A stretch of DNA of 64,000 bases from assembly GCA_965262635.1 (NCBI GenBank), contig OZ253547.1:4156234-4220233 (forward strand), in the 5' to 3' direction. Source of the stretch: Candidatus Versatilivorator sp. (GTDB lineage Bacteria; Acidobacteriota; Terriglobia; Versatilivoradales; Versatilivoraceae). The stretch's first letter is position 1, and the number at the start of each line of letters is the position of its first letter. Of this stretch, positions 13,094-50,424 are shown piece by piece. The notes under the pieces were generated by a model. The model had not been told where the DNA came from. It worked only from the letters and a program-made list of their open reading frames with translations, and did not search any database. The translations under genes were made by a program, and so were the position numbers.

Positions 13094-13124
13094 GGGAATG
13101 CTCCTCCACAGCCGTCAGGCAAGG

Positions 13125-27283: not shown

Positions 27284-27346
27284 TCGCTTCCGCGGGTGAA
27301 ACTGGCTGATGGCGCGGAAAAGAAACGCACACCGGGAGGCTGCCCG

Positions 27347-33930: not shown

Positions 33931-34067
33931 GCGTCGATTGGATTCCGTCACTCGGGAATACTCCGGCTGCTTCAGTTGTGGAGGCCGCGCCCACCAAATA
34001 AAGATCGTAAGCGACCGATTCCAAGAACAGTTTCACTGCTGCAGATTCTCAGGCTCCATGGAGGGCG

Positions 34068-34310: not shown

Positions 34311-34311
34311 C

Positions 34312-34710
34312 TTACACCTCCAGATTTACGAGCGTAACGTCAAGTCTTTCCGCAGCGCGTCTCAGTGGCCGGTCCAACGTCAGCAGGGGTGCACGGTACC
34401 GGGCTGCGCAATCCAGAAAGTATGCGTCGTAGGCATATAGGCCTGCGCTGGACGCGATGGACAATACGTTCGCCATGTCTGTATGCACATATCGCAACGG
34501 AATCCTGTCGAAAATTTCCAGACCCTTTCGGGCGTCCGCAACATTAATTCGGCGCTGCTTCACCATCGCCGTGAAAGCATTTCCGACTTCCCAAGGGATG
34601 GAACCGGGGCCGATAAGCGTCTGGCCCGATGTAACCGAAACAATCGCATCCCGTTCGGGCTCACCGACGATCACTGCAATGAGCGCCGACGTGTCGATCA
34701 CAAGATCCAA
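34312..34710 (-). CDS. vapC: VapC PIN-domain toxin (TTG start; track ORF extends to 34830)
   Basis: PIN acidic residues (IDTS...WEVGN...YDAYFLD...TLDRP). An RBS aagggagg sits 6 nt before TTG at 34710. Confidence 0.8.
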   Translation of the reverse strand: MDLVIDTSALIAVIVGEPERDAIVSVTSGQTLIGPGSIPWEVGNAFTAMVKQRRINVADARKGLEIFDRIPLRYVHTDMANVLSIASSAGLYAYDAYFLDCAARYRAPLLTLDRPLRRAAERLDVTLVNLEV

Positions 34711-34733
34711 TACAGCCTCCCTTTCCTTTAATA

Positions 34734-34761
34734 ATTGTACAATTGTCCATATTAATGTCAA
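34734..34761 (-). promoter_or_regulatory. consensus sigma70 promoter for the vapC operon (ttgaca-N16-tacaat) overlapping the palindrome acaattgt
   Basis: The minus strand reads ttgacattaatatggacaattgtacaattattaaaggaaagggagg. Confidence 0.45.
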
Positions 34762-34947
34762 GCGGCGGCAAGGACCTCGGGGCTGAAGGAACACACGACC
34801 CGCCATCGCGTGAGCATTTCCGGCTAGCAACTCACGTCAACCCTGATCATGGGACCAGCAGTTAGGCGGAAATCGATGAAAACCAGACTGTTTCACGACA
34901 GGATACCGGGCACATTCGTGTCGAATGACGAACTCAGGGGGTGCCTG

Positions 34948-36120
34948 CTACGCGGGCGGCGGGCTCCAGATCGTGGCTCCGATGTAGCGTTCCGGGCCAG
35001 AAGCCTCGTCAGTGAAGTAGTACATTGCAACGACTTTACCGTCCGGCCTTTGGACAGCCCTCACGTAACCGATATCTCGGCTGGCCCCGTCGTCGCGGAG
35101 CGTGATGGGGTCGCTCCAGGTCCTGCCCCTGTCGCTGCTAAGGATGGCGCGAATGCTGTAGGGCTCGGCCCGGTAGCCATAGAGCAGGCAGATCCGTCCG
35201 TCCTGCAGCTTGATCATCGCGGGCGGGTTGCCCACGCCTGCGTCAGGCACCGCCTCGTTCAGGGACTCCCAACTGGCGCCGTTGTCGGTTGACAGGTAGG
35301 TCCTGATCCACCTCCTGGTCTCCTCTCGCATGCGAACAGCGACAAGAATGTCCGTTTCGGAAAGCCGGACCGAGGCCGGCATGATGGAGAACCCTTCGGG
35401 CTCCGGACCGATCCAGGAAACCAATTTCCAGGTTTTGCCGGAGTCGGTGGTACGCACGCATAGAGGCCTTCCCTCCCTTCCGTTCGCCTTTGCGGCCGTG
35501 ATGAAAAGCGTGCAGGTGTGATGGTCATCAATGATGTAGTCCGTGCGGGGGGCAATGCCGGGCGAGTCGAAGCTCGGCAGGCGGAACGGGCCGTCCCAGG
35601 TGTGGCCTCTGTCATAGGAATAGAAGATGCGGCCGATTCCGGCGTGAATGCTGTTGGTGCGAACGGTCAGGGCGAGGTCCGGGTGTGTGAAGTCGATGCC
35701 ACCCTCGCTTTCTTTCAGCGCCGGGATGGTTACACCCGGACGGGTGACACCGTGCAGGTATCCGCCCTCCGTCAGCAGGTACCCCTTCGCCCCCGGGTCC
35801 TCTATCGACCAGGTCTCGCCGCCATCAAAGCTTCGGGCCAACATCGGAATCTCCGGCTTCTCGCGATCGATGTGGTGGCCCAGACCCTGGTCCTTGTAGT
35901 AACCCATCCCGAAACCGACCAGGATCTCGTTACCCCAGCTCCAGATGCCGTGATTGGCCGGCCAGCCGCCGAACATGCCTTTCTCGAAGTAGACCTTGAC
36001 ATGCCGGGGTTCGTCGGCCGTTACCTGCTTCTCGCCGGAAGGACTCGTTTCATCCGGTGTGGAACAAGCGACCATTCCGGCCGCCAGCAGGCACGTGACA
36101 AAAAAGATTCTCAATTTCAT
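34948..36120 (-). CDS. BNR/Asp-box repeat sialidase-like lipoprotein
   Basis: Lipobox LLAAGMVAC and five Asp-boxes (SFDGGETW, SYDRGHTW, TTDSGKTW, STDNGASW, SSDRGRTW). Confidence 0.8.
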   Translation of the reverse strand: MKLRIFFVTCLLAAGMVACSTPDETSPSGEKQVTADEPRHVKVYFEKGMFGGWPANHGIWSWGNEILVGFGMGYYKDQGLGHHIDREKPEIPMLARSFDGGETWSIEDPGAKGYLLTEGGYLHGVTRPGVTIPALKESEGGIDFTHPDLALTVRTNSIHAGIGRIFYSYDRGHTWDGPFRLPSFDSPGIAPRTDYIIDDHHTCTLFITAAKANGREGRPLCVRTTDSGKTWKLVSWIGPEPEGFSIMPASVRLSETDILVAVRMREETRRWIRTYLSTDNGASWESLNEAVPDAGVGNPPAMIKLQDGRICLLYGYRAEPYSIRAILSSDRGRTWSDPITLRDDGASRDIGYVRAVQRPDGKVVAMYYFTDEASGPERYIGATIWSPPPA

Positions 36121-36137
36121 TCGATTCCCCGCCTCTC

Positions 36138-36262
36138 TGCAGACAGCACTGGTTGATTGAGTGACCGAGCTTCGAACCTCCGGTTCAGGCGTGGCAACGC
36201 TTTGCTTTGGAACCGGCCGCTTGAGTATGGTGGGTCTTATCTGTCCAAAGAACCAGGGGCGG
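36138..36262 (+). repeat. family C direct repeat, copy 1 (~125 bp)
   Basis: ~85% identical to 36748-36872. Confidence 0.7.
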
Positions 36263-36292
36263 AACGTTACAGAGTTGTATTGGATTCGACGG

Positions 36293-36508
36293 CTAGGCCA
36301 GGAAGGATCTGAGTAACCACACCAGAAGGAATCCGACCAGGATTCGGACCAGCCATTTTGTTTCCGAGAGGTCCCTCTTGATCGTCTTAAGGTCTGACTC
36401 GATGCCCGCCAACCGATTCTCGTAGGTGCCAAGCTCTTCTGCGGCCTCCTGGGCCTGGAGATCGGAGGCCCCAGAGGCTTTGAAAGCCGCGTAGGTTTTT
36501 GACAGCAT
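36293..36508 (-). CDS. XhlA-like small coiled-coil/TM protein
   Basis: 71 aa, coiled coil then C-terminal TM (..LKTIKRDLSETKWLVRILVGFLLVWLL..). Confidence 0.45.
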   Translation of the reverse strand: MLSKTYAAFKASGASDLQAQEAAEELGTYENRLAGIESDLKTIKRDLSETKWLVRILVGFLLVWLLRSFLA

Positions 36509-36747
36509 GATTGCTATGGTGCTCTCTCGTGCTTAGAGTTTACCACATCTTCTCAGAGAGCGAAGCCCTCCCCCCCTGTGGGGAAAGCAGCGATTTTCGC
36601 CGCATTGCTTTAATCTCCAGCGACCGCTTACGACAGTTCGGAACACCAACTATTTGCTGAGTTTGCTTCATCAGCAACTGCTGTGGGTCCGGCACTTCCA
36701 GTCGATCCCGGAACTGGTTCGAGCACTGGAAGAGTTTCGCGCTCTCT

Positions 36748-36872
36748 ACAACCAGCATTGGTTGATTGAGCGCCTCGGCTTCGAGCCTCTGGTTCAGGCA
36801 AGACAACGCCTTGCCTTGCAACCGACCGCTTGAGTATGGTGGGTCTTATCTGTCCAAGAAATCAGGGGCGGT
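36748..36872 (+). repeat. family C direct repeat, copy 2
   Basis: Shares ...ccgcttgagtatggtgggtcttatctgtccaa... with copy 1. Confidence 0.7.
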
Positions 36873-37183
36873 ACACTTGAGCCAATCTTGCACCTGACCT
36901 GGTAGCGACTTCGAATTTCAATAGGGGTAGAGCGTCGATGAGCAGAGTCCGTAGAAAAGCCTCAAGGTCACCAAACTGCAGTACAACTGAGACACGTTGC
37001 GTGGGGGTAGGGAGGGCTCGACCTCTACCCGAATGCGCTCGCTGCCCACACGAATTCCTGAAGCGGTCTCAAATTAGTCAACGCCTCGGCTGTTGGTCGC
37101 GGCAGATAGTGCCGTGTCAAACAATTTCCCTAGTGATAGCGCCACGCTTCCGGGGTCTGAAATTGTGCCGCTGAGTCTCAACT

Positions 37184-38410
37184 ATGCGCTTTGGCAAAAA
37201 ACAAGGCCCGGCCATCCGTTCCCAACTCTTCAGCCTCAATTTGGCGATCCTGCTATTCGCGCAGGCAGTGGGGGTCACCGGCTGGTTCGCTGTCGTTACG
37301 GCTGGCGGAATCCTTGGCCGTAGCCTGGCGGCAAACCCGGCCCTGGCGACCTTGCCGGTGTCACTGCTCGTCGTGGGCAATGCCGTTTCCACGATCATCG
37401 CTTCGTGGACCATGGCGCACGTGGGCCGCGCCCGTGGCTTTGCGATTGGCGCCACGGTGGGCGCCTTCGGAGCAGCCTGTGCTTTCCTTGCAACCCTGAC
37501 TCACGACTTCGCGCTGCTTTGTGGCGGCTCGATCACGATCGGCTGCGCGGCCGCGTTTTCTCAGCAATACCGCTTTGCCGCCACTGAATGTGTCGGTGCG
37601 GCGGCCGCACCAAAAGCGATCTCAATCGTGCTTTTGGGCTCCATCTTTGGCGCTTTCCTCGGCCCGGGACTGATGTCGTGGGGCGAGGCCTGGGTCGCGG
37701 GCGCACCGTTCGGTGGCTCATTCGCCGCTATTGTGGCGTGCAATTTACTTGGCGCTGCCGCCCTCCTTGCCTTGCGGCCGATGACCCCTTCGGCCGAGGA
37801 AGAAACAACCGGGGGCGCTCGTCCTCTGCGCGTCATAGTTCGCGGCCACTTCTTTATCGCGGCCGTCACGGGGGGCGCGATCGGGTGGGGCGTCATGACT
37901 GTCTTGATGACGGCCGTACCGCTGGCCATGCATATTGTCGACGGGTATTCCCTGGCGGCAACGGTGGCGGTCATCCAGGCCCATGTGCTGGCCATGTACC
38001 TTCCTTCATTGATCAGTGGTGCTCTCATCGGACGCTTCGGCGCCGGGCGGGTGATGATTGGGGGAGTGGCGCTGCTTGGCGCCACCCTGGTTGCGGGCCT
38101 GGCGGGCCGCCACATGCTGCACTACGGCCTGGCCATGGTGGCGCTCGGCGTCGGTTGGAATTTCCTCTATGTTGGAGGAACGACGCTACTGGCCCGAGCC
38201 CATCGTCCAGCCGAACGCTTCCGTGTTCAGGCGCTGAACGATTTCAGCATTATGGGTATCTCGGCCTTTGCCTCCTGGAGTTCGGGGGCAGTCATGGAGC
38301 TGCTTGGCTGGAACGGGGTGCTCTACGCGTCGATTCCCGCCATCCTCGTTGCAGCTATGGTCATTCTCTGGGTACGTCCGGACCCTCCGCCAGCAGCTGA
38401 CCGCGCATGA
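37184..38410 (+). CDS. MFS transporter
   Basis: 408 aa, 12 TM-like segments. Confidence 0.85.
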   Translation: MRFGKKQGPAIRSQLFSLNLAILLFAQAVGVTGWFAVVTAGGILGRSLAANPALATLPVSLLVVGNAVSTIIASWTMAHVGRARGFAIGATVGAFGAACAFLATLTHDFALLCGGSITIGCAAAFSQQYRFAATECVGAAAAPKAISIVLLGSIFGAFLGPGLMSWGEAWVAGAPFGGSFAAIVACNLLGAAALLALRPMTPSAEEETTGGARPLRVIVRGHFFIAAVTGGAIGWGVMTVLMTAVPLAMHIVDGYSLAATVAVIQAHVLAMYLPSLISGALIGRFGAGRVMIGGVALLGATLVAGLAGRHMLHYGLAMVALGVGWNFLYVGGTTLLARAHRPAERFRVQALNDFSIMGISAFASWSSGAVMELLGWNGVLYASIPAILVAAMVILWVRPDPPPAADRA

Positions 38411-38490
38411 GAGCAGGGGCGGCTGTCAACGGTCATCAGAAACCGCGTCAATCTGAACAGATGGTGGACCACAACATCTTGTAAGAATTA

Positions 38491-39845
38491 GGGGACGTTG
38501 TTGAATTACTGGAATAACTGTCTCCGTTTCCTATTCCTGACCGACTGAAACGGCGTAGCAGATGCCTTCCCGAACGCTTCGGTACACTCGCAGGCACTCA
38601 CACCGCGATTCGTCCTCGAAACGCGGCCGAATCGTTGCACCAGCAACTCGCACACGGTATCCTTAATTCTCCGCCTGTTTTTTCCTCCCTCCCTAAGCGT
38701 CGTCGCACGCTTGGTTCTCCAGGTTTTCGATGACAACCACCCCGTCCCGAAAACAGCAGGTGTGCTGTACGGGACGTTTTTGAAGTACCGAAAAAACCCT
38801 ACACAGTTTCTCCCTACACAGTTTCCAAGTTGTCACTACCCAAAGGAGAGCAGCAATGCCTCGCCAGGCACGGCTGGACGCTCCCGGCACCCTCCACCAC
38901 GTCATGCTGCGCGGTATCGAGCGCCGGGCGATTGTGACCGACGACGCAGACCGTCACGAGTTTGTCAGGCGCTTGGGAGCCTCGGCCATGCAGAGCCGAA
39001 CGTCGGTCTATGGCTGGGTCTTGTTGACCAATCATGCCCACCTGCTGCTACGTAGCGGTCCTGATGGGTTACCCTGGTTGATGCGCCGCTTTCTGACCGG
39101 GTATGCCCAAGCCTACAATCGGCGCCACCAGCGTCACGGTCACCTGTTTCAGAATCGCTACAAGTCCATTGTGTGCGAGGAGGACGGCTATTTCATGGAG
39201 TTACTCCGCTACATCCATCTCAATCCTATTCGTGCCAGGCTGGTCAGGACCTTAAGCGAATTGGAGCGTTATCCCTGGAGCGGGCATGGAGTACTGTTGG
39301 GAGAGATAGCGGGGAGCTGGCAAGAACGGGAGTGGGTGCTGAGTTGGTTTGGCAAAACGACCGATAGTGCCATACAGGCCTATCGCGAATTTGTAGCGGA
39401 GGGCGTGGGACAAGAGCGACGGCCTGAGCTGGTCGGAGGCCGGCAGGTCCGATCAGGAGGGAGTTGGTCGGTAGTCCGCGGCCGAAGTCGGCAAAAAGTA
39501 GGCGATGAGCGGATCCTTGGCGGTAAGGTCTTCGTGGCCACGGTACTACGGGAAGCGGAAGAGCGAATACGCCGACAACTGGCGGTGCGAAGAAACCAGT
39601 CTGGGGTGTCCGAGGCAATAGAGCGGGTCTGTCGGCAGGCTGGTGTCAGCGCTCGGGAACTGCAGGCGGGCAGTCGGCGAAGGCCGGTGTCGAAGATTCG
39701 AGCCTTGCTGGCACAACGGCTAGTGGCAGAGTTCGGGCTGTCCCTGGCGGAAGTTGCTCGCCAATTAGGGGTCTCCCTCTCCGCAATTGCCAAGAGTTTA
39801 CAGAATCGCCAGACAGAATAATTCCAGTAATTCAACAACGTCCCC
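38491..39845 (+). mobile_element. IS200/IS605-superfamily-like insertion sequence with 27-bp TIRs (ggggacgttgttgaattactggaat) flanked by TA
   Basis: Left end at 38491, right end ...aattccagtaattcaacaacgtcccc at 39845, and flanks tta|...|tac. Confidence 0.8.
38856..39821 (+). CDS. Y1 HuH transposase (IS200-like Y1_Tnp domain) fused to a DnaA-C-like HTH
   Basis: HuH motif LLTNHAHLLL, catalytic Tyr region YIHLNPIRARLV, and C-terminal ..AEFGLSLAEVARQLGVSLSAIAKS.. Confidence 0.85.
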   Translation: MPRQARLDAPGTLHHVMLRGIERRAIVTDDADRHEFVRRLGASAMQSRTSVYGWVLLTNHAHLLLRSGPDGLPWLMRRFLTGYAQAYNRRHQRHGHLFQNRYKSIVCEEDGYFMELLRYIHLNPIRARLVRTLSELERYPWSGHGVLLGEIAGSWQEREWVLSWFGKTTDSAIQAYREFVAEGVGQERRPELVGGRQVRSGGSWSVVRGRSRQKVGDERILGGKVFVATVLREAEERIRRQLAVRRNQSGVSEAIERVCRQAGVSARELQAGSRRRPVSKIRALLAQRLVAEFGLSLAEVARQLGVSLSAIAKSLQNRQTE

Positions 39846-39864
39846 TACTGACTCCTAGCGGCTG

Positions 39865-40330
39865 GTGCGGGTGGAGGAGTCACTGCCCTACAGCAGGGGC
39901 TGGCGGCGCCGTCCGCTGAAGGATCGTGCGGCGCTGGCGCGGGCCTTTCTGGCGAAGGCGGTGCTGGACGTGCCCACCACCCGGGGGCTGGTCGAGCGGC
40001 TGAGGACGGAGGGTCTGCTGCGTCGGCTGTGCGGCTGGGAGGCGGCAGGGGCGGTGCCGAGCGAGGCGACCTTCTCGCGCGCTTTTGCGGAATTCGCCGC
40101 CAGCGACCTGCCGGGGCGCCTGCATGAGGCGCTGCTCGACAGAACGCTGTAGGGCCACCTGGCGGGCCACGTGTCGAGGGACTCGACCGCCATCCCGGGA
40201 CGAGAATCGCCGGCGCCCAAGCCCGCCCCGACGGCCAAGCCGAAGCGCCGACGAAGTCGGCCGCGCAAGGACGAGCCACGGGCGAAGGAGCCGCGACGCC
40301 TGCAGCGGCAGGCATCGATGACGCTGGAGG
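39865..40330 (+). pseudogene. IS1182/IS5-family transposase internal fragment (in-frame stop at 40150, truncated at both ends)
   Basis: Matches the IS1182-type N-terminal region (..RPLKDRAALARAFLAKAVLDVPTTRGLVERL..LCGW..VPSEATFSRAF..). After the TAG stop it continues with HVSRDSTAIPGRE (the DSTAI DDE-region motif). Confidence 0.5.
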
Positions 40331-40768
40331 GACGTCCTCGCTCCCTTCAAAGCTCAGCCCTGGAAGGGGCCGCCGCCGGAAGTCGCCACTCACAGCTTTG
40401 GCGATCACGGGGGCGAATCACCGGAGCATCAAGCGTTCAAGGAGGCCGTCCGCTTGCATCCAGTCTGGTTTGGGATCCCAGAGCGTCCTGCGTCCGTTGA
40501 ATATCCCTTCGTGACCGGTGACGCCGTCGACGTCCTGTTCACTCAGGGCACTCGAATGTGGGGAGGCGCGGTGAAGTCGGCAGTGTCTCAGGAAGGGGAT
40601 ATTCTCCGAGGCCTGTTTCAGTGCGTGAAGTACCGCGCCCTCCTTCAGGCGGAGCAGGTAGCCGCCGGCAATGCGTGCTTCGTCGATGTCTATCTTGCTT
40701 GTGAGCATGAGTTCCCAGCGAAGCTGCTCGGTGTTGGCCACGTTCTAGCAGCCCGTGGTTAAAGGGCG

Positions 40769-41212
40769 ATGAGGGGATCGACACGATCGATCCTGTGTAC
40801 TACACTCCGGCATGGCCATCAGACGATGCAAGAACCGGGCACGCACGCCGGGGTTGCCGAGATGATCTCGCAGCTGATCGACTTGGCGAAGAGCCTGCGA
40901 GACGCGCAGCGGCACGGCGAAGAACTCGGCCTGAGCGGCGAGGAAACTGCCTTCTACGACGCCCTGGCGGAGAACAGGTCAGCCAGAGAAGCGATGCAGA
41001 GCGATACGCTGCGTCTCTTGGCCCGGAAACTGACCGAAATGGTCAAGTACATGCCCAAGCTTGACTGGACCCATCGCGCGTCGGTACGGGCGAGCCTGCG
41101 GCGGAATGTTCGCCGGTTGCTGGCAAAGTACGGCTACCCTCCGGATCTGGCCGAAGACGCGACGCAGCTCGTCTTGCGACAGGCAGAGTTGTCCACGGAG
41201 AACTCGGAGTAA
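40769..41212 (+). pseudogene. C-terminal fragment of a type I restriction enzyme R subunit (HsdR C-terminal/DUF3387 region)
   Basis: ..EELGLSGEETAFYDALAENRSAREAMQSDTLRLLARKLTEMVKYMPKLDWTHRASVRASLRRNVRRLLAKYGYPPD.. matches the conserved HsdR C-terminus. There is no helicase/nuclease core upstream. Confidence 0.55.
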
Positions 41213-41625
41213 ACCAGGATGGCTTGGCCTCGCCGCTACTGTTTGGTAGCGCCATTCGACAAGCAGCGCGCCAGTTGACGCGGGTCGCCGGCCCGAAACT
41301 CGTGGAAGTACGCCGCACCTTGATCCTGGGCGAGCGAATCCTTCATGTTAACGGGACTTATGGATCATCTTTCCGACTGATGTTTTACCCCTTCACGGAG
41401 GGAAACATTGACCCTGAGCGACCCCAACATCACCTCATGGGCCGGCGTCCGAAATTCCGGCCCGTGAGCACGGCCCAGACCCGCTCAAAGACGCTCCCAG
41501 AACGGGCGTTAGGCGTCTTTAGAACGGGCCGGGGGGCGAGCATTGAACAAGTGCCCGAGGACTCATAGCCGTGATCTACGTGAACCGCCGTGGCGATCGC
41601 AGGCGAGGCAGACGTACGGCTTGAT

Positions 41626-41926
41626 GATGAAAGGGCATCACGTCAGATACCTCCAGCAGTTCGTTCATATTCTTCCCGGTGACTTGGTACTTCTTCCGAC
41701 GGATGGTCGCTGCTATCAGGTGCATCTGCGAGTGGTAGTACCGCCCCGCTGCCAGGAACTTGCCCGCGCTGGGATACCGGCCTACTACTACTATTTCGAT
41801 ATCCCTGGTCGGAACTGGTACGAGCACGCCCACCGAGTGGCACGGCATCCCGCGTCCGCAAGCGCACCCTCCGAGGTGCTGGCCGTCGATCCGGATGCGT
41901 GCGCCGACTTGGACGGAGACGCATAA
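41626..41926 (+). CDS. hypothetical small protein (100 aa), possibly first gene of the nuclease-helicase operon
   Basis: The ORF ends 2 nt before the ATG of the next gene; there is no homology call. Confidence 0.3.
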
Positions 41927-41928
41927 CC

Positions 41929-42726
41929 ATGGTCGCCGCGCTTGCACCGGAGATACGCTACTCGGGGTCGAAGGACTCCGCGCAGTGGCGCGGCCACGTT
42001 GTCGTGGATGAGGACCGCTTCAAGTCCTACGTGGCAGGCCGCGTGAAGGCGCGGATGGAAGACGACGAAGCCCAAGGCCAATTTGCGGCAGAACTGCACG
42101 GCATGGCCACGACGGGGATGGCCACCGAGTTCGTGGAGACTCTCCTTCAAGCAGTTTCGGAGGAAAAGTCGTGGGCTGTCGGAGAGGCCCTGGCAGAGTG
42201 TGTTCTTGCCGACGACGAGACGCGTGAGGTCTGCTGGCCTTGGAATCTCGTACGTGACCGCCGCACGCCAAGGGCCAGTCTGCCGGGGGCGGACCTGGTT
42301 GGCTTCTGCAAGGAGGGCGATGCCGTCCTCTTGCTCTTTGGGGAGGTGAAGACATCCTCCGATGCAAGCACCCCTCCCAACGTGATGAACGGAAGCGGGG
42401 GGATGGCATGGCAGCTCAAGAACGAAGCGACTGACCTCAACATCCAGCACGCATTGCTGAAGTGGCTTCGCGCGCGATGCGCATCTGCCGAGCACCAGGC
42501 GCTCTATCAGGCGGCGGTTCATCGCTATGTCCAGTCGCTTGGGAAGGAGATCCTTCTCGTAGGGATACTTCTTCGCGACACGGAGCCCAATGAACTGGAC
42601 GTGACTGCCCGGGCTAAGGTCCTCGCAAAGAGCCTTGGCAGCCCGACGCGCATCGAAATCACCGCTTGGTATCTGCCTGTTCCTATCAAGGACTGGCCGG
42701 CTTTGCTTCATGGGGGTGCACCATGA
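41929..42726 (+). CDS. PD-(D/E)xK nuclease-like protein (HamA/DUF1837-like candidate)
   Basis: 265 aa. The motif ..PGADLVGFCKEGDAVLLLFGEVKTS.. gives D122...E139-V-K141. An RBS ggaga lies upstream, and the stop overlaps the next gene's start (ATGA). Confidence 0.55.
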   Translation: MVAALAPEIRYSGSKDSAQWRGHVVVDEDRFKSYVAGRVKARMEDDEAQGQFAAELHGMATTGMATEFVETLLQAVSEEKSWAVGEALAECVLADDETREVCWPWNLVRDRRTPRASLPGADLVGFCKEGDAVLLLFGEVKTSSDASTPPNVMNGSGGMAWQLKNEATDLNIQHALLKWLRARCASAEHQALYQAAVHRYVQSLGKEILLVGILLRDTEPNELDVTARAKVLAKSLGSPTRIEITAWYLPVPIKDWPALLHGGAP

Positions 42727-45700
42727 CAGCAGCCACCTGGCTTCGAACGGCAGTTGGCGAGGAGCGCCTTCGCCAGACTTCGACAGAGGCGAGTCGCCGG
42801 AGGCTCACCAATGCTCTGAGTTCACCTTCTCAAGCAACAGACGATCGGGAACTCCAGTTCGTCACGAACGCGCTTGAGTTGCAGCTATTCGATGCCCTGG
42901 ATGACGAGGGTCGTGTGGTTGAGCTCCGCGCTGTTGCTGCGGAGACCTTCCGGATCGCCAGAACACTGGCATGGCCGCAGGAGCCGGTTGCCGCAGCTCA
43001 GTGGCTCGTACGGTTGGGGTGCATCGCGGTGCTCGGTGATCGCTCGGCCGATTTCCGTCGCATTGTCACGGAGTGCGAGCTTCCGGCGCTTGCGCCCGAT
43101 TCGGCCGACTGGGGAGTCCGCGTCTGGTCGTCAGTCTTGGACGTGTGGTTGCGTCTCCTGCGAAAAAAAGGGTGGGGCGATCTCGATGCTGTCCAGGAGC
43201 GAATCGTCGCCATTCGCGAAGCACAGCGAGCTTTCGAACCAGCATTCCTGAAAGAAGCGGAGGCTCGCAAGGATGTGCGACCGGCCTGGGAACTCATGGC
43301 CCAGTACCATCTCGCGAAGGCTGCTGAGATTCTGGGCGCCTATGTCGGCCAGGGCTCAGTCGATGGCCGCTATGACATTCGACAGCAGCTTGAAGCGCAA
43401 TTTGACCGAGCTATTGCCGCGTCGGCTCGTGGGCAACTGGTCGAGCGAGAGATGCTGTCGCGGCTCCTTGCTCGGGCCGCACGCGTGATGGTGGACAACA
43501 GCATCTGGACAGTGACGCGCGCGGTGAACAGCAGGGTGACCCGATTTGTGCAGTCGTTGACAGCTCGCGATCGAAAGCGCCCGATCTTCGAGATGCTACC
43601 GCCTCAGAGACGGACCCTTAGGGAACACGGCCTCCTCGGGTCTGGCCATCGATCAGTCGTAGTGAGCTTGCCGACTTCAAGCGGCAAGACGTTCATCGCC
43701 GAGTTCCGGATCCTCCAGGCGCTAAACCAGTTCGATCAAGAGAACGGGTGGGTTGCCTATCTGGCCCCCACGCGAGCACTCGTGAATCAGCTCACCACGC
43801 ACCTCCGCCGCGATTTCTCCCACCTTGGGACTGTCGTAGAAAAGGTGAGTCCGGCACTGGAGGTGGATGGTCTCGAAGCAGGGATGCTGACCGAGGCCGA
43901 CCGGGCGCAGCAGTTCCGAATCCTCGTGACCACCCCTGAGAAGCTGGACCTAATGTTGCGCGGGGGATGGGAGGACGAGATTGGCCGTCCCCTCACGCTG
44001 GTCGTCGTGGACGAGGCGCACGGCCTGGCCTCCGAGAACCGCGGGCTCAAGCTCGAGCTGCTTCTAGCGACCATCAACCGCGAGTGCCGCTACGCGCAGT
44101 TCCTCTTGTTGACGCCTTTCATCCGCAACGGCGCAGAGATTGCCCGCTGGCTTTCGCCAGACAGCAACAAGAATATCGACATCGGCGTCGATTGGACCCC
44201 GAACGACCGCGTAGTGGCGATCGCCCGGGTGAACCAAGGCAATCGTAGAGGCGAATTCAGCTTGTCTCTGCACACTCGACACACGACGCACAACACCCTC
44301 GACGTCCCGGAACAGATTGGCATCGGCGAGCCGCGTCCTCTCGGCTTGGCCTGGTCTGCAGTGAAGAACTCGCCGGGCAAGATCGCAGCAACAACCGCAC
44401 AAGTTCTTAAGAAGCGTGGCACCGTCATTGTGCTCGCTGACACTCCGTTGGCAACGTGGGGGATCGCCGACGCATTCAAAATCGAAGAGAACAAGCGAAC
44501 GCTAGAGGGTGACGACCTCGGACACGTGCAACGGTTCCTCATCGACGAAATGGGAGGGGACTTTCCGCTGGCCCGCTTGCTCGAATATGGAGTCGGTGTT
44601 CACCACGCGGGAATGTCCGAGGACACGCGCTCTCTCGTGGAGTGGCTGACCGAGAACGATCGCCTGGGGGTTTTGGTCGCAACGACCACCATTGCTCAAG
44701 GCGTGAATTTTCCGGTGTCCGGCGTCGTGTTTGCCAGCCACCAGTACCGGCTCAGAGAGAGGCCATGGCGAAAGGACATGCCTCCCGAGGATTTCTGGAA
44801 CATTGCCGGACGAGCGGGTCGGGTGGATCAGGGAGACCTTGGGGTTATCGCTCTTGCGGCCAAGGATGACGCTAAACAACAAGTGCTTGAGCAGTTCATC
44901 GATGCTTCAGTCAGCGAGCTCAACTCGACGCTCATCGAGTTGGTACAGACAGCGGCGAATGCCGGCTCGCTGCTGCAGTTGGAATCGCTGTCGTATCAGC
45001 CCGGTTGGTCCGCCTTTGTCCAATACCTGGCTCACACGTACCGTCAGATCGGGAATCACGAGCAGTTCGCAGCGCAGGTCGAGCAAGTTCTCCGGGGCAC
45101 ACTTGGCTTCCAGTCGCTGCGCAAGAGCCACAAGGGATGGGCGGACAGTTTGGTGCAAGGCGTGTACGCCTATGCCGAGAGAATCAAGGGGAAGCCGCTA
45201 AGCCTCGTCGATGCAACGGGGTTCTCCTGGGAGTCGGTCAATGCCACGCTGGCAAGGCTCGGCCAGGAGAAACTGCCGAACGACGTATGGTCGCCCGAGT
45301 TGTTCGCCGGCCGCAGAGACGACCTTCGTAGGATGATGGGACTCCTCCTGCAGGTGCCTGAGCTGCAAGATTCGCTCAAAGACGTCACTGGCGGAACGAG
45401 CCCGGATGGAGACAAACTCGCCCGAATCATCTGCGCCTGGGTTCAGGGGCGTCCGCTCATCGAGATGGCCACCGATTACTTCAGCCAACCCGGCGAGGAG
45501 GAGAGTGATGAAGCCGCAACGGGTCCCGTCACTGCAATGACCAAGTGCTGCCAGAGCGTGTTCGGGAGGTTGACACAAACTGCATCGTGGGGCCTCTCCG
45601 CGCTTCAGTCACTCACGCTTGGAAATGCCTTCGATGAGTTGTCTCCCGACGAGCAACGAAGCCTCCGCAACCTGCCGGCGCGCGTGTACTACGGCGTCAA

Positions 45701-45911
45701 CAGCGACGAGGCCGTCGCCCTCAGGCTGCTGGGGGTGCCCAGGACGGCAGCGCCGGCGCTCGCGATGGGTCTTGCGGTCAAAGCGGACGAGCCGCTTCAC
45801 CAGGTTCGCGGTCGGCTCCGAGCGGCCGACGTGAGCGAGTGGACGAAGGCGATGGGCGAGCGCGGGGTGAGCTACCATCGAGTCTGGTCAATCATGGAAG
45901 GCGAGTCTTGA
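42723..45911 (+). CDS. SF2 DEAH-box helicase, 1062 aa (Ski2/Hel308-like; HamB-like candidate) with ~320-aa N-terminal and ~400-aa C-terminal helical extensions
   Basis: Walker A LPTSSGKTFIAEF, DEAH box LVVVDEAHGL, motif VI NIAGRAGRVDQG, and VLVATTTIAQGVNFP. Confidence 0.85.
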   Translation: MTAATWLRTAVGEERLRQTSTEASRRRLTNALSSPSQATDDRELQFVTNALELQLFDALDDEGRVVELRAVAAETFRIARTLAWPQEPVAAAQWLVRLGCIAVLGDRSADFRRIVTECELPALAPDSADWGVRVWSSVLDVWLRLLRKKGWGDLDAVQERIVAIREAQRAFEPAFLKEAEARKDVRPAWELMAQYHLAKAAEILGAYVGQGSVDGRYDIRQQLEAQFDRAIAASARGQLVEREMLSRLLARAARVMVDNSIWTVTRAVNSRVTRFVQSLTARDRKRPIFEMLPPQRRTLREHGLLGSGHRSVVVSLPTSSGKTFIAEFRILQALNQFDQENGWVAYLAPTRALVNQLTTHLRRDFSHLGTVVEKVSPALEVDGLEAGMLTEADRAQQFRILVTTPEKLDLMLRGGWEDEIGRPLTLVVVDEAHGLASENRGLKLELLLATINRECRYAQFLLLTPFIRNGAEIARWLSPDSNKNIDIGVDWTPNDRVVAIARVNQGNRRGEFSLSLHTRHTTHNTLDVPEQIGIGEPRPLGLAWSAVKNSPGKIAATTAQVLKKRGTVIVLADTPLATWGIADAFKIEENKRTLEGDDLGHVQRFLIDEMGGDFPLARLLEYGVGVHHAGMSEDTRSLVEWLTENDRLGVLVATTTIAQGVNFPVSGVVFASHQYRLRERPWRKDMPPEDFWNIAGRAGRVDQGDLGVIALAAKDDAKQQVLEQFIDASVSELNSTLIELVQTAANAGSLLQLESLSYQPGWSAFVQYLAHTYRQIGNHEQFAAQVEQVLRGTLGFQSLRKSHKGWADSLVQGVYAYAERIKGKPLSLVDATGFSWESVNATLARLGQEKLPNDVWSPELFAGRRDDLRRMMGLLLQVPELQDSLKDVTGGTSPDGDKLARIICAWVQGRPLIEMATDYFSQPGEEESDEAATGPVTAMTKCCQSVFGRLTQTASWGLSALQSLTLGNAFDELSPDEQRSLRNLPARVYYGVNSDEAVALRLLGVPRTAAPALAMGLAVKADEPLHQVRGRLRAADVSEWTKAMGERGVSYHRVWSIMEGES

Positions 45912-46226
45912 GACCCGGGAACCGGCCCACACTCGCCTTGGAGTTGCCCCAGTTCCGCGCACAGGCTAAGGCTTTCGCTGCTGCCGGCGTTGTCAGCTCG
46001 TGGTCGTCCCCCGCCGCGCCGGCCGCTGCCGGCTGGCTTGTAACGGCTCGACGACCGAGGACCGCGCATTGATCAGTCTGCGCGTGGCGTTGATCCCGGT
46101 CACTCGTCTCCCTTACGCGAACGACTGCGCGTCCACTTCCACCTCAGCGGTGATGCTGGCATCGTCGGGCCAGGACTGCGTGGGGAACGCGTTCTTGTCC
46201 GGGTTGTCACTGACGGACGAAAAATA

Positions 46227-46486
46227 GGGGACGTTGTTGAATTACTGGAATAACTTTCCCATTTTCTTATTCCTGACTGACCAAAACGGCGAAGCAGATG
46301 CCTTCCCGAGCGCTTCGGCACACTCGCAGGCACTGACACCAAGATTCGTCGTCAAAACGCGTCCGAATCGTTGCACCAAGCACTTTCCCCACGGTTTTCG
46401 CGGATTTTCACTCTGTTTTTTCCTCCCTCTCTAGGCGTCGACAAAATCGCCGGAAAGAGTAATTCCACTAATTCAACAACGTCCCC
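46227..46486 (+). mobile_element. MITE derived from the IS at 38491-39845 (left 215 bp + right 45 bp, no transposase), TA-flanked
   Basis: ggggacgttgttgaattactggaataac...taattccactaattcaacaacgtcccc with flanks ata|...|tat. Confidence 0.8.
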
Positions 46487-46853
46487 TATTGACCCGGAGA
46501 AAAGAGGAACACCACATCTTGCGGACGGCCGCGCTCGAGTAGGCCGAGCTCGGCACCGGACACCCCACGCATCGGGGATGCTCGCTGATCCTCAAGCCAC
46601 CGTATCAAACTGCACGGGCAATACCTTGCAATTTCAAATACTTAGATGCCGGTGGCGCTGCCCTTCGGACTCCTCCTTGCCACAAACCCAGCTTCATGCT
46701 CAGGACACGACTGTGGCATGCTGGCACTCCCAGCGCTAAGCTATCTACACACAGGGGAACACCATGAACTGACGGTGCGCGCCTCCAAAGCAGCGTAAGC
46801 ATCCGGCGAAAGCCGCAGGGTGTGTCGGTCTGGAGCCAGGACCGGGCATGCCG

Positions 46854-47381
46854 TCAGCCTTCGAGCTCGCGCGGTACCACTTTCCGAAGCCCTATTGCCG
46901 AGTGTGCCCGACCTCCGAGCGTGCTGGCCAGTTTCCGGAGGGCCGCCGCATGCTTCCTTATCGTATCTGCCACAGGAGGTTGCCCGGTCTGCTCTCCCAA
47001 AGATCCTCCGTACCTCAGGGTAACGGCGGCGTCTTTGTAATGCCCGAAGGCTTCCCGTATATCTTCCATCGGGACGCAGGACGCCACAGCGACCTTTTCC
47101 CTCCACTCGTCGGTCAGGCGGTTCCAAAGAATGACGAGGTCGTGCTTTTTGGGAACGGACCTCCCCATCTCCCGGTCGAGAATGTGCTTCAGGCCCAGTT
47201 CGATACTGTTGATCCGCAAAAGGACGGAACCTAAGGTGAGCGCGAACATCACATCGCCCTTGGAGAGGCCGCGCGCCTTCCATTCCTCTTCGTCCACGCC
47301 TTCAAGCATGTTGGCAGCCATGGCGTAAATCCTTGCCCCCAAGCCGAAATTTTCGAGGTTCTTCTGGCGTGACTTGGACAT
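46854..47381 (-). CDS. hypothetical protein, possible HEPN-like (Rx5H)
   Basis: 175 aa; LKHILDREMGRSVPKKHDLVILW. Confidence 0.4.
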   Translation of the reverse strand: MSKSRQKNLENFGLGARIYAMAANMLEGVDEEEWKARGLSKGDVMFALTLGSVLLRINSIELGLKHILDREMGRSVPKKHDLVILWNRLTDEWREKVAVASCVPMEDIREAFGHYKDAAVTLRYGGSLGEQTGQPPVADTIRKHAAALRKLASTLGGRAHSAIGLRKVVPRELEG

Positions 47382-47485
47382 GTGCAGCCGTCTCCTCGAA
47401 GCGACATATTGATGCCACCAGCAATCTTAATTGCACTCTAAATGGTGGCAGATGGATAACGCCGGTTCGCGTCAATCGCCGGCGA

Positions 47486-47851
47486 TCACAACTCGTCCCA
47501 ATTCTTTGGCCGACCCTCGTGAAGGAGCTTGAACAGCGTCCTTCTGGCGATATCGAATCCGCTGGCGAACCACCGCTGAGTTTCCAGCGGAGAGGCGTTG
47601 CGCCGCCCGCCGTGAACGATGTTCGACCGTGCGTTGTAGAATCTCCTGACGGTCTCCTTGATCCGTTCCCTGCTCACGGAATGGGTTCCAAGGTACCGGG
47701 AAGCCCTGTTCTGTAATGTAGCGGAAATGTCCCGCCGCGGTAGGTCGTACATGTTTTCCAACGCGATCACAACATCGACAATCCTCATCTCATCCGCGAA
47801 CCCTTCGCCCCTTGCAAGTGCCTGGGAAAGCCGACTCACAATCGGCGCCAC
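47486..47851 (-). CDS. HEPN-domain protein (Apea-like Rx4HG motif), possibly 5'-truncated by MITE insertion
   Basis: YNARSNIVHGG motif. It has a GTG start, and the reading frame stays open upstream right to the MITE edge at 47879. Confidence 0.5.
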   Translation of the reverse strand: MAPIVSRLSQALARGEGFADEMRIVDVVIALENMYDLPRRDISATLQNRASRYLGTHSVSRERIKETVRRFYNARSNIVHGGRRNASPLETQRWFASGFDIARRTLFKLLHEGRPKNWDEL

Positions 47852-47878
47852 CTGGACGTACCGCTCAGGCTCAAAATA

Positions 47879-48137
47879 GGGGACGTTGTTGAATTACTGG
47901 AATAACTTTCCCAGTTTCTTATTCCTGACTGACTAATACGGCGAAGCAGATGCCTTCCCGTGCGCTTCGGCACACTCGCAGGCACTGACACCGCGATTCG
48001 TCCTCAAAACGTGTCCGAATCGTTGCACCAAGCAGTTCCCCCACGGCATCCTGGATTTTCACTCTGTTTTTTCCTCCCTCTCTAGGCGTCGACAGAATCG
48101 CCAGACAGAGTAATTCCACTAATTCAACAACGTCCCC
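47879..48137 (+). mobile_element. second MITE copy derived from the same IS, TA-flanked
   Basis: ~95% identical to 46227-46486, with flanks ata|...|tat. Confidence 0.8.
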
Positions 48138-48651
48138 TATTGATGTTCGTTGCCCGCAGGTCCTTCATGAGCAAGAACAGGTGATAGGGATCCGTGGGGC
48201 TCGGCTCGAACTCCAAGGCTTCGTACCAGCCGCGCGCCTCGTCGTCCTTGGCATGGACGAGAAGCGCCCGAATACCGGCGATGTCGGCGGCGGCGGCGGT
48301 TCTGAGCAGTGCGTCCTTGACGAGCGCCTTGCCCAGGCCTCGTGCTTGCCAGGTCAGGTCGACCGCGAGACGGGCGAGGAGCATCACGGGGATCGGGTGC
48401 CGGGCCAGCCCCTTGCCGCCTCGGAGAGGTGCGTCGGCATGTTCGACTGCTCCCGCCGCAAGGCTGTAGTAGGCGAGCACCGTCAATCCCCGGCAGGCGA
48501 CATAGGTCCGGGCACTGTCGGCCTTCTGGTTCGCCAGCGCGAAACGCTTCAGAAAACGATCGAGTGGCTCTTTCCCGCACTCGAAGGAATCGACATCGTG
48601 CGTTGCGTCGAGCTTCTCGACTGGAGACAACCCCTCCTGTCCCGGCGTCAC
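48124..48651 (-). CDS. GNAT-family acetyltransferase toxin (TacT/KacT-like)
   Basis: GNAT core (..VLAYYSLAAGAV..RLAVDLTWQARGLGKALVKDAL..). The GTG start overlaps the antitoxin stop (GTGA). Confidence 0.7.
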   Translation of the reverse strand: MTPGQEGLSPVEKLDATHDVDSFECGKEPLDRFLKRFALANQKADSARTYVACRGLTVLAYYSLAAGAVEHADAPLRGGKGLARHPIPVMLLARLAVDLTWQARGLGKALVKDALLRTAAAADIAGIRALLVHAKDDEARGWYEALEFEPSPTDPYHLFLLMKDLRATNINRGRC

Positions 48652-48924
48652 TCCAGCACGCTCTTCTCCGCAAGCAATCGAGTCAAGCGGGGCTTGTCGG
48701 CGACCGGACGGTCGAGGATAGCCTGGAAGGCCTGCCACTGGCGATCGTCGAGCCGGAAAATCCGCCGGTCGACCAGGGCGTCCTCAGCGGCGTTGATCCC
48801 TGCCTCGAGCAGAAACTCCGTGACGTTCTTGTGTGACGAGGCCGCAGCCCGCTGAAGCAACGCCTTCACGTTTGAGGTCGTCCGAACCTCAATGCGTTCC
48901 GACTTGTTTTCGGCGATGGCCATG
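48648..48924 (-). CDS. DUF1778-family antitoxin (TacA-like)
   Basis: MAIAENKSERIEVRTTSNVKALLQRAAASSHKNVTEFLLEAGINAAEDAL... is the typical RHH/DUF1778 sequence. Confidence 0.7.
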
Positions 48925-49516
48925 AATGTTCCTCCGATTGGATCCACAGACTTTCTGCCATACGGATAGTGTACGGACAAGAACGCATCGACAGGCACCC
49001 CACAGTGCCTCACATCCTCCTGACAGTCCACGGCACGGTGCCGACGATGTGGGCCCTCATCGGCCAGGCAGGCATAGGGCTCGCAGGCTAGGTTGGCGGA
49101 GATCAGCCGCAACCGAGGCGGGGCTCGTCGCCGCGCAATGTCTCGACGCTCTTGACCGCCAGGCTGCCGCCCACAGCACGGCCATCTCGCCGGTGCCCCG
49201 GCCCACTCATCTGGTCGTCACGCTCCCAGACAACGGCTGGAACCAGGCGATCCGTCGAGCGCGGAGATCGCAAAAAAAGTTGCGCGGAAAGTTTGCGCAC
49301 AACTCGTCTTCTCTATCCTTCTGATTTCAGATGGGTTACGCCTGCGATCGATCGGCCGCCGACTGAAAGTCGCCGCGCGCCGTGCTCGCCGAGGCCCGTA
49401 TTCATTGATTTTTTTTGGCACAGGGGGTTGCCGATCCCCTCTGTTCGCGCACAACACGCACAGCTACGGTGGTGGGAGTTCGTTTGCACAGTCAGCAGGG
49501 TGACGATGCCGCAACG

Positions 49517-49990
49517 ATGTTGAGATTTCCGACCGTCAAGGCCCGCACGGGTCTGTCGCGCAGCACGATCTATCTCCGCATCTCCCGCGGCACGTTTCCC
49601 GCCCCCGTGTCCCTCGGGGGCCGTGCAGTGGGCTGGATCGAGGCCGAGGTGAACGCCTGGCTCACCGCGCGGATCGCGCAACGCCGGCTGATCGCGGCCC
49701 GGGGAGCGGGGGCTCCAGGCAGCGTTTGCCGGCAAGCTCAAAGACCAGATCGAGCAGGGCGTGGCGTCGTGGCAGAAGCGGTGGAAGCCCGGCGAGCGCC
49801 GAGCGCGTCGGCGAAAGTGGTGGAGGCGGCGGGAGTCGAACCCGCGTCCGAAATTACTTGGCGAAAAGAATCTACGTGTGTATCCGGTTCCTTTTTGGTT
49901 TCGCCGCCCGACATTGAGAACCGGCAAGAGTGCCTGGCGACTAGACCGGTGAGTTTCACCGGCGGCCCCCGGACGTCTGCCACCGGCTAG
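49517..49990 (+). CDS. AlpA-family phage/island regulatory protein (excisionase-like HTH); only the first ~65 aa are conserved and the ORF has no stop before 49990
   Basis: MLRFPTVKARTGLSRSTIYLRISRGTFPAPVSLGGRAVGWIEAEVNAWLTAR matches AlpA. The C-terminal 90 aa are low-complexity and antisense to ssrA. Confidence 0.55.
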   Translation: MLRFPTVKARTGLSRSTIYLRISRGTFPAPVSLGGRAVGWIEAEVNAWLTARIAQRRLIAARGAGAPGSVCRQAQRPDRAGRGVVAEAVEARRAPSASAKVVEAAGVEPASEITWRKESTCVSGSFLVSPPDIENRQECLATRPVSFTGGPRTSATG

Positions 49991-50176
49991 CCTGTTAGTC
50001 GACGCTCCACATCCGCCGCACAGGTATCAGCGGAGGGAACGGCTACTTAAGTTTTTTTAAGCAGCAAGTGCCAATGGTTCATCAGCAGTTACATTTAGGT
50101 CCATCTTTTTAACGAGGGGATGGTCCTCGACACGCATCTTCAGCCTTGATAATCCCGTCGAAACCCTTTCGCCCCC
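49818..50176 (-). ncRNA. ssrA: tmRNA (ssrA)
   Basis: The minus strand reads 5'-GGGGGCGAAAGGGUUUCGACGGG...GGACGCGGGUUCGACUCCCGCCGCCUCCACCA-3'. The 5' GGGGGCG pairs with the 3' CGCCUCC to form a 7-bp acceptor stem. The T-arm is GGUUCGACUCC and the end is CCA. A tag-like frame ...ADEPLALAA-UAA lies ~90-120 nt from the 5' end. Confidence 0.75.
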
Positions 50177-50424
50177 AAGGAGATCAGCCCCACTGAAAAC
50201 TCGACAGCGGGTGAGGTAGAGCCATTATAGGCTGGGCACCAAGAGCCTGTCAAGCCGCCCACCTGCCACGTTAGTCTTTTTAAAATGAGGGGGATAGCCG
50301 TGGGACTGCGGGTCTTCATTCCCACCCCGGCACGCGGTGGGCCAACCCCGTAAACCGGACCCTGACCGAGCGGAAACGCCCGCCTCGGAAGGCGTCTTCA
50401 CCCGCGATCCGCCGGTGCGGTTCC

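Follow-up and report, generated by a model that had tools for sequence, protein, structure and literature searches.

A probable integrase-less ssrA-island remnant in Candidatus Versatilivorator, with strain-variable, putatively defensive cargo separated by TIRYT-derived MITEs

We analysed a 64,000-nucleotide stretch of a Candidatus Versatilivorator genome (contig OZ253547.1; "the window" denotes this whole stretch) and, within it, the accessory block that lies downstream of ssrA, the gene for transfer-messenger RNA (tmRNA). A genome scan places the lineage in the Acidobacteriota, among 'Candidatus Versatilivorator' and relatives, many of which are sponge-derived metagenome-assembled genomes. 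Read away from ssrA, the block holds an AlpA-like gene, a TacA-TacT-like toxin-antitoxin pair, two small genes here called p121 and p175, a helicase operon of the PADLOC type PDC-M23, two gene relics, an insertion sequence (IS) of the TIRYT group (terminal-inverted-repeat-associated tyrosine transposases), two miniature inverted-repeat transposable elements (MITEs) derived from that group, and an MFS transporter gene (Table 1). An earlier note, made from the sequence of the window, had described an old, decayed island abutting the tmRNA gene; all the features that it listed are present, and its 'HEPN-like' and 'nuclease' labels could be verified in part only. For comparison, we used about 40 strain- and species-level versions of the locus from long-read sponge metagenomes, labelled L0xx or L1xx. 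To obtain the sibling loci, we searched for exact matches to the PIG-L and MFS proteins of the flanks, which gave about 20 long-read metagenome contigs with flank proteins identical to those of the window and ~98% nucleotide identity in the conserved parts. On the upstream side of ssrA the gene order is constant (diol-dehydratase, Cys/Met-PLP enzyme, a 267-aa protein, PIG-L), and the downstream side is variable.

Table 1. Features of the ssrA-proximal block and its edges (window coordinates; ORF, open reading frame).
Feature	Coordinates	Strand	Evidence and remarks
BNR-repeat (sialidase-like) gene	34948..36120	-	Pfam BNR_2; first gene past the island that keeps its position across species
Strain-specific replacement segment, far junction	36148..36900		~750 bp, two small ORFs; 133-bp direct repeats 36133-36265 and 36742-36874
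MFS-transporter cassette (gene 37184-38410), cargo and not core flank	37040..38484	+	Pfam MFS_1; within attL..attR in siblings
TIRYT IS, Y1/HUH tyrosine transposase with C-terminal helix-turn-helix (HTH) domain (protein 38856-39821)	38485..39851	+	36-38-nt terminal inverted repeats, starting GGGGACGT
IS5/IS1182-type transposase N-terminal relic (DUF772)	39865..40152	+	Pfam DUF772 1.8e-10
Type I restriction HsdR C-terminal relic	40769..41212	+	Pfam T1RH-like_C 8.3e-45, profile 214-328 of 329 only; PADLOC REase_I C-terminus
PDC-M23A, 265 aa, helicase partner, putative PD-(D/E)xK nuclease	41929..42726	+	PADLOC PDC-M23A 1.6e-94
PDC-M23B, Ski2/Hel308-like superfamily 2 (SF2) helicase, 1062 aa	42723..45911 (ORF 42666-45911)	+	PADLOC PDC-M23B E=0, whole profile
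MITE-1, 272 bp, chimeric between two MITE types, link between the M23 and p175-p121 cassettes	46221..46492
p175, all-alpha protein, partner of p121	46854..47381	-	Pfam HEPN E=0.033, sub-threshold
p121, small protein with RSNIVH (Rx4H) motif, possible HEPN	47486..47851	-	Motif from translation
MITE-2, 271 bp, non-autonomous TIRYT derivative, 22 nt upstream of p121 start	47873..48143		Repeats and terminal-repeat search
TacT-like GNAT toxin, ~175 aa	48124..48651	-	Pfam Acetyltransf_7/10/1, GNAT 2.9e-6 (ORF 48124-48738)
TacA-like antitoxin, 91 aa	48648..48923	-	Pfam TacA1 6.8e-25 (ORF 48648-49112); 91 aa in siblings
AlpA-like gene, domain ~49517-49663	49517..49990 (ORF 49415-49990)	+	Pfam Phage_AlpA 1.1e-17
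attL, attachment-site core, final 14 nt of ssrA, cGCCGCCTCCACCA	49818-49831
ssrA (tmRNA), intact	49818..50176	-	ARAGORN tag peptide ADEPLALAA; Rfam RF00023 190 bits, full-length model
Perfect sigma-70 consensus promoter TTGACA-18-TATAAT, 5' of ssrA	50224..50253	-	Promoter scan, 12/12 matches

The genes nearest to ssrA, AlpA and TacAT, are the only part of the block retained in nearly all strains; L026 has TacAT without AlpA. No stop codon interrupts the AlpA ORF ahead of ssrA, and it extends 172 nt antisense into the tmRNA gene. In siblings, gene callers made AlpA 161 or 328 aa long, and the ~105-aa tail may or may not be translated. By their coordinates, tacA lies directly upstream of tacT with a 4-nt overlap. 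TacT measures 171-177 aa in siblings, and homology to several of these stops at 48150, just past the tacT stop. A DUF1778/TacA antitoxin gene overlapping the gene of a GNAT toxin places the pair among the TacAT modules, with toxin acetylation as a putative activity. Next to it, p121 matched nothing in Pfam, PADLOC or NCBIfam. The AlphaFold2 model of p175 is all-alpha (pLDDT, the model's confidence score, 71); a Foldseek search with it returned no significant PDB match (best E=0.86, with weak HEPN proteins at TM 0.40-0.47). There are 78 homologues of p175, none of them annotated. Wherever the p175 gene was located, it stood beside p121 and TacT.

The larger operon pairs a small protein with a helicase. 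PDC-M23B carries the Pfam domains DEAD, ResIII and Helicase_C; its next-best PADLOC model is HamB (2e-54), and by sequence it also matches HamB in the PDB (8vx9_B, 7.8e-21). PDC-M23A matched no Pfam family, HamA/DUF1837 profile or PDB entry, and its AlphaFold model is unusable (pLDDT 40). A motif D122..E139-x-K141 is invariant among its 1760 homologues, and from this D..ExK signature a nuclease role is plausible. The best 120 of the 1760 homologues are at least 75% identical despite coming from different phyla (Gammaproteobacteria, Gemmatimonadota, Acidobacteriota), which suggests strong constraint together with wide horizontal transfer. A full-length relative of the DUF772 relic, with DDE_Tnp_1 and DDE_Tnp_1_6 domains, is found in L029. 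In codon usage, which the earlier note had proposed to examine, the block genes show a third-position GC content (GC3) of 0.65-0.79 versus 0.84-0.88 in four clear core genes; the bulk GC profile has no sharp step.

The junction of the block with ssrA is exact. The gene is intact and probably transcribed from the consensus promoter in front of it; its CCA end is at 49818, with the block downstream of it. In L009, a strain of the same species, homology to the window ends exactly at 49818 and is lost from the base after CCA onwards, and across the genus at least six unrelated sequences start at the base directly after the CCA of ssrA. They place one end of the island at the tmRNA 3' end, where the earlier note had put it. 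L009 could not be kept as a simple empty site: ~20 nt of ancestral flank are recognisable in it, followed by a different restriction-modification cargo.

A second attachment site is found in relatives. In two sister species another copy of cGCCGCCTCCACCA lies downstream of ssrA in the same orientation, at 7.4 kb in L026 and, with 1 mismatch, at 8.4 kb in L029, and the 14-mer also recurs in strains L011-L020 of the window's own species. It occurs twice in direct orientation in both L026 and L016; two copies per 21-kb locus were seen in 0/100 shuffles. After the second copy in L026 and L029 come a PSCyt1/PSCyt2/PSD1 gene and then a DUF1501 gene, and these same PSCyt/PSD1 and DUF1501 genes stand directly after ssrA in L023, L025, L031 and L040, which thus present the empty site. 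To the left of this far copy (attR), an AT-rich arm of at least 110 nt is conserved across L026, L029 and the sibling strains. Of the 24 nt preceding the attR core, 12 match ssrA at the corresponding position, as expected if they are a displaced, decaying ssrA 3' fragment. The direct repeats and the empty sites in relatives show that the island had a site-specific origin at ssrA. The earlier note had called for a comparison with related genomes, and was prepared to abandon the island if there were no empty site or no attachment-site repeat; the unoccupied sites of the four genomes just named, and the occupied sites bracketed by the 14-nt direct repeat, answer both points in its favour. In the four empty-site genomes the 3.9-kb native flank (11251-15186, PSCyt/PSD1 and DUF1501) is 99% identical, and their PIG-L proteins are 79-92% identical to that of the window; this hints at recent between-species recombination of the flank segment.

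The same data bear on whether there was ever a site-specific island here. The locus might be a permissive intergenic hotspot beside ssrA whose contents were exchanged by homologous recombination in the flanking genes, a reading that agrees with the conserved flanks (PIG-L/ssrA and MFS/BNR) around differing cargo and with the lack of an integrase in ~40 loci. We consider it highly improbable, however, in view of divergence that begins at the first base after CCA in many independent configurations, the 14-nt direct repeat and conserved arm that bracket the insert, and the precise empty sites.

The far edge of the island has been remodelled in the window's strain. Neither the ssrA 3' end (searched as 25-, 16-, 13- and 7-mers) nor the conserved arm recurs elsewhere in the 64-kb window, so that the earlier note's failure to find a convincing direct repeat extends to the whole of it. 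The weak 7-mer that it had offered as a candidate at 38463 is a chance match, since TCCACCA is present 23 times in the window. In siblings, attR has a HepT/MNT pair on one side and MazE-PemK-BNR on the other, and it lies left of the MFS gene. Consequently, the MFS gene belongs inside the island; its end at 38410 had been taken for the left boundary, and this was wrong, the island edge being near 36.1-36.9 kb. The GC3 of the MFS gene is 0.71 (four core genes, 0.84-0.88). It is duplicated in L018 and L019 and relocated in two further loci, adjoining TacT in L015 and standing past the native flank genes in L023. The BNR gene lies beyond attR in siblings and 9 kb downstream of ssrA in L024 and L040.

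Between the BNR and MFS genes, the 36148-36900 segment replaces ~6.4 kb of sibling L016 that comprises PemK-MazE, attR and its arm, HepT-MNT, a RiboL-PSP HEPN gene, an IS fragment, an integrase relic and a PIN gene. The arrangement is common to L021 and L115 only. Of an attR-like site that is intact in L015, just 'gtaccGCC' survives in the window (~36866-36873), and the conserved attR arm and core are absent from it. The 133-bp direct repeat of this segment (83% identical) is also found between MITE and MFS cassette in L002, L012, L016 and L018; further copies of its core, ~20-36 nt long (ccgcttgagtatggtggg...), include one at window 20726-20745, and the repeat may represent a second small repeat family.

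The integrase is gone as well. Recombinase families matched no stop-to-stop frame of at least 75 aa between 36100 and 49900, which bears out the earlier note on this point; none of the ~40 loci has an integrase near ssrA, and in six other species the ORFs downstream of ssrA were defence genes and IS elements, with no integrase. What sibling strains do carry is a 129-aa N-terminal relic of the Phage_int_SAM_1 family that reads towards attR, its 3' end abutting a truncated IS copy. The relic in L016 (7884-8273, minus strand) belongs to a family of 221 database proteins, all of 71-226 aa and with no full-length member, and the search for an intact integrase of the island family through relic homologues therefore reached a dead end. 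Two relatives of the relic that were looked up sit in unrelated variable regions (SMODS with SLATT, ankyrin/pentapeptide). Thus, the window's strain has lost both integrase and attR. With attL but without attR and integrase, this copy can no longer be excised as a unit by site-specific recombination.

Mobility in trans was also considered. The island could be CIME- or satellite-like (CIME, cis-mobilisable element), with its integrase encoded elsewhere and AlpA as excision-directionality factor. AlpA and attL are intact and conserved, siblings hold attL and attR with identical 14-nt cores, and between-species identity is 95-97% for TacAT as against ~90% for core proteins, all of which would suit such an element. 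We nonetheless judge it very unlikely: the window lacks attR and the arm, which precludes site-specific excision of this copy, no candidate integrase was identified in the loci examined, and the AlpA ORF has lost its natural end.

The description of the block as an old, decayed and immobile island holds in that it has no integrase and is immobile as a unit, but not in so far as it implies a static locus, for the contents turn over quickly. In siblings with identical PIG-L and MFS proteins, at least 10 different arrangements were found directly beyond TacT: p121-p175; an IS1595 with Sel1, pentapeptide and SMC-like genes; a KAP fragment with an AAA_13 ATPase and a HEPN protein; four unknown genes with Gabija (OLD-TOPRIM, UvrD); an SDH-protease with HTH-M78; Dcm with HD-CE and ORC/CDC6-like genes; a type IIG restriction-modification enzyme; DUF6602; the MFS gene directly; and a 461-aa protein with the M23 cassette after it. 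What follows the M23 pair also varies, with at least five versions among the window and its siblings, namely p175-p121 (the window), 295- and 167-aa proteins, an IS with AbiTii and TM2, the 461-aa protein, and PycTM with Gabija. In other species the same site is occupied by HerA with a methyltransferase and GmrSD/Schlafen, by an Eco57I-like enzyme, or by Dcm with PRTase-CE and ORC/CDC6. Defence and toxin-antitoxin genes are therefore clustered here between conserved flanks, with a content that differs among close relatives, as in a defence island.

The strain-variable cassettes are separated by members of one transposon family. The IS is 1.37 kb long, and its protein combines an N-terminal Y1_Tnp domain with C-terminal HTH_23/Bac_DnaA_C matches (Pfam); against NCBIfam REP_Tyr_transpos it scored 63.5 bits, below the model cutoff. 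The MITEs have the left end (~215 nt) and right end (~60 nt) in common with the IS and fold into long hairpins. All six terminal-repeat matches in the 64-kb window fall within 38489-48139 (0 expected by chance), and in the window and 20 loci taken together the 238 kb downstream of ssrA contain 112 terminal-repeat ends and the 239 kb upstream contain 2. The flanks of 57 distinct IS/MITE copies show no target-site duplication, and among 140 MITE/IS copies in otherwise collinear sequences there is no filled/empty polymorphism. Outside this locus, the 20-nt terminal repeat TAGGGGACGTTGTTGAATTA (window 38489-38508) is exact in 47 metagenome contigs (L068-L114) with GC contents of 36%-67%. In one of these (L111) the transposase next to the exact repeat is just 56% identical, so that conservation of the DNA end far exceeds that of the enzyme. 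The LXNI and LXNJ contigs contain mini-MITEs of ~115 bp. We discarded the idea that the MITEs are defence-specific elements, given their housekeeping-gene neighbours in other metagenome contigs. A plasmid or phage origin of the island was likewise rejected, no nucleotide match to it being found in plasmid/phage collections; viral contigs do not contain the TIRYT terminal repeat.

Homology between the window and its siblings breaks at MITE/IS ends, at 46222 in seven loci and at 46493 in L017 and L115-L120; further breaks are at 47868-47873, 48150, 39851-39856, 38418, 38555 and 49818. The observed strain-level differences are thus cassette differences with junctions at MITE ends. We aligned MITE-1 with two sets of references, the MITE that follows M23B in L115, L117, L118 and L017 and the MITE that precedes p175 in L002, L004 and L016. 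At 30/30 diagnostic sites in 46221-46429 MITE-1 is of the M23-side type; at the remaining pair of diagnostic sites, 46444 and 46455, and throughout the flank beyond, it agrees with the p175-side type, and no site is mixed. The A/A state at 46444/46455 is rare among distinct MITE right ends (5 versus 46) and is therefore a shared derived marker, not an ancestral one. MITE-1 is accordingly the product of a single crossover between two MITE copies within the 14-nt interval 46430-46443, which joined the M23 cassette to the p175-p121 cassette. The crossover is recent, because L115 is 99.2% identical to the window over 33196-46493 and different beyond. In L001, L007 and L010, which carry other cargo, MITE-2 is ~8% divergent, with most of the differences in the distal half, as against ~2% for the neighbouring TacT.

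Whether the transposase itself moves the cassettes has to be considered at this point. TIRYT 'peel and paste' of single strands, in which a MITE-bounded cassette is placed beside another MITE end, would account for junctions that lie exactly at MITE termini, for an M23-side MITE that is identical despite three different neighbours, and for the tandem MITE-MITE pairs in L001 and L005. The lack of target-site duplications is as expected of Y1 enzymes, no simple MITE insertion polymorphism was seen among the 140 copies, and the window has an apparently intact transposase gene. Against this, the MITE-1 chimera is a signature of homologous recombination, and L001, L007 and L010 have a mosaic or divergent MITE on the TacT side. 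The p175-p121 and M23 cassettes are found at this locus only and not elsewhere, and the same MITE family occurs amid ordinary housekeeping genes in other metagenomes. Moreover, cassettes of 1.5-6 kb are long for single-strand transposition of the IS608 kind. On balance, we regard transposase-moved cassettes as unlikely. We are equally doubtful of the broader proposition that TIRYT MITEs form the working boundaries of a transposase-driven, integron-like cassette-exchange array in an uncultured sponge symbiont; if true, it would explain terminus-exact junctions, identical MITEs with different neighbours and missing insertion polymorphisms together.

We therefore favour, with a probability of roughly 80%, an integrase-less ssrA-island remnant that became a defence store and was diversified via MITE recombination. 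A tyrosine integrase would once have inserted the island into the ssrA 3' end, with cGCCGCCTCCACCA as the crossover core. The backbone of the island family, read from ssrA, is attL, usually AlpA, TacA and TacT, cargo, the conserved AT-rich arm and attR. Recombination functions were then lost, and in the window's strain a deletion or replacement at ~36.1-36.9 kb has also taken attR, leaving the island as a unit fixed in place. TacAT, as an addiction module, probably stabilises the locus and discourages loss of its anchor. The interior has become a strain-variable store, here of an intact PDC-M23 pair, p121-p175, TacAT and MFS, separated by the TIRYT IS and the 272-bp MITEs. MITE and IS copies could serve as portable homology, at which recombination within a genome or between co-resident strains would delete, join and swap cassettes; we infer that such recombination is the main driver of turnover.

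Several observations weigh against this account or narrow it. On one side, the evidence for the crossover in the window consists of two diagnostic single-nucleotide polymorphisms and the flank. Five siblings, with downstream cargos of three kinds, share an M23-side MITE that shows no difference as far as its terminus, which fits end-specific joining by a transposase as well as it fits homologous recombination. Beyond attR the window's own species has MazE-PemK-BNR and not the PSCyt/DUF1501 flank of the sister species; the clean comparison of occupied with empty sites therefore comes from other species. L015 carries a second, imperfect copy of the core, which hints at tandem or rearranged islands. 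No island of the family with an intact integrase was found, so that the enzyme is deduced from the attachment-site anatomy and the relic. Finally, an anti-phage role of the cargo (PDC-M23, p121/p175) is putative.

Other variable or repetitive stretches lie to the left of the island. A HepT/MNT pair and a PIN (VapC-like) gene (32192-32801 and 34312-34830; GC3 0.59-0.61) lie left of BNR, and this stretch varies among siblings, with, for example, PhdYeFM and PIN in L011, L018 and L115. About 11 kb left of the island, window 23460-25672 holds one more abortive-infection or toxin-antitoxin module, made up of an AbiEi-like antitoxin and a WYL-domain AbiEii toxin. Direct repeats of ~400 bp (25982-26359 and 27344-27724; 86-88% identical) surround an Nramp gene; in L021 a methyltransferase stands between an Nramp gene and an Nramp fragment, which resembles a local duplication or disruption. 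Two inverted-repeat pairs, 22052-22096/22249-22293 (45 nt, 91%) and 28558-28614/28777-28833 (57 nt, 70%), have arms ~150-160 nt apart and resemble unrelated small MITE-like elements.

A degenerate, integrase-less ssrA island and a defence hotspot are both well-known kinds of locus, and recognising them is routine annotation. What the locus adds is a dense natural series and a MITE crossover that can be seen directly; together they record with unusual clarity how contents are swapped. The series shows stepwise how insertion at ssrA, loss of the integrase and of one attachment site, and conversion to a fast-changing defence store may follow one another, and it offers a concrete, testable mechanism by which strains of an uncultured symbiont could diversify their anti-phage repertoires. 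Two uncharacterised cargo systems also stand out, PDC-M23 with its very strongly conserved small subunit and the p121-p175 pair. Our literature search on Versatilivorator, on PDC-M23 and on MITEs with defence islands found nothing relevant.

Islands and prophages at the ssrA 3' end include E. coli CP4-57 (IntA/AlpA), and such islands are reportedly the subject of Williams's 'Traffic at the tmRNA gene' of 2003. The present locus shares with them exact insertion at the ssrA 3' end, a short direct repeat on the far side, an AlpA-type gene, defence cargo, and occupants that differ by strain and species. It differs in that no member seen has an integrase, in that the far repeat is deleted in the window, and in that AlpA adjoins ssrA, the usual place of the int gene. 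CIMEs are cis-mobilisable, integrase-less derivatives of integrative elements that have kept their att sites; the sibling copies with attL and attR and without integrase resemble them, whereas the window copy has no attR and no helper element was identified in our data. In Acinetobacter, ssrA is the site of a 'genomic archipelago' (bioRxiv 10.1101/2023.09.20.558655).

As a single slot occupied by different systems in close strains (Gabija, restriction-modification, AbiTii, PycTM, PDC-M23, toxin-antitoxin), the locus resembles the defence hotspots. Such defence islands, or 'core defence hotspots', between conserved genes are familiar from pangenome studies of E. coli and P. aeruginosa. Here, however, the slot is split into cassettes by MITEs, and a MITE-by-MITE crossover is directly visible. 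Pipolins likewise act as exchangeable defence reservoirs (PMC11551731). The helicase operon is like Hachiman (HamA-HamB) in being a two-gene operon of a small protein and a large Ski2/Hel308-like helicase of HamB type; PDC-M23 is the best match by far, and because the small partner has no HamA/DUF1837 match, we assign the operon to the PDC-M23 candidate system and not to Hachiman proper.

The IS agrees with the TIRYT transposases, of which subclass 2.1 has Bac_DnaA_C/HTH tails (PMC6006769), in its Y1_Tnp domain with C-terminal HTH, in terminal inverted repeats beginning GGGG and in having no REP hairpins. Its repeat, GGGGACGT, matches 7/8 positions of the published consensus GGGG[AT][CG]A[CG] (PMC6006769) and differs at position 7, and the element has abundant MITE derivatives of 272 bp and ~115 bp that are concentrated in one island. 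Integron arrays, lastly, are also linear and promoter-poor rows of cassettes with a repeated separator and differences between strains. The locus is not an integron, because it has no IntI and no attC; its separators are transposon-derived MITEs, and exchange, in the one case that could be seen, was by ordinary homologous recombination.

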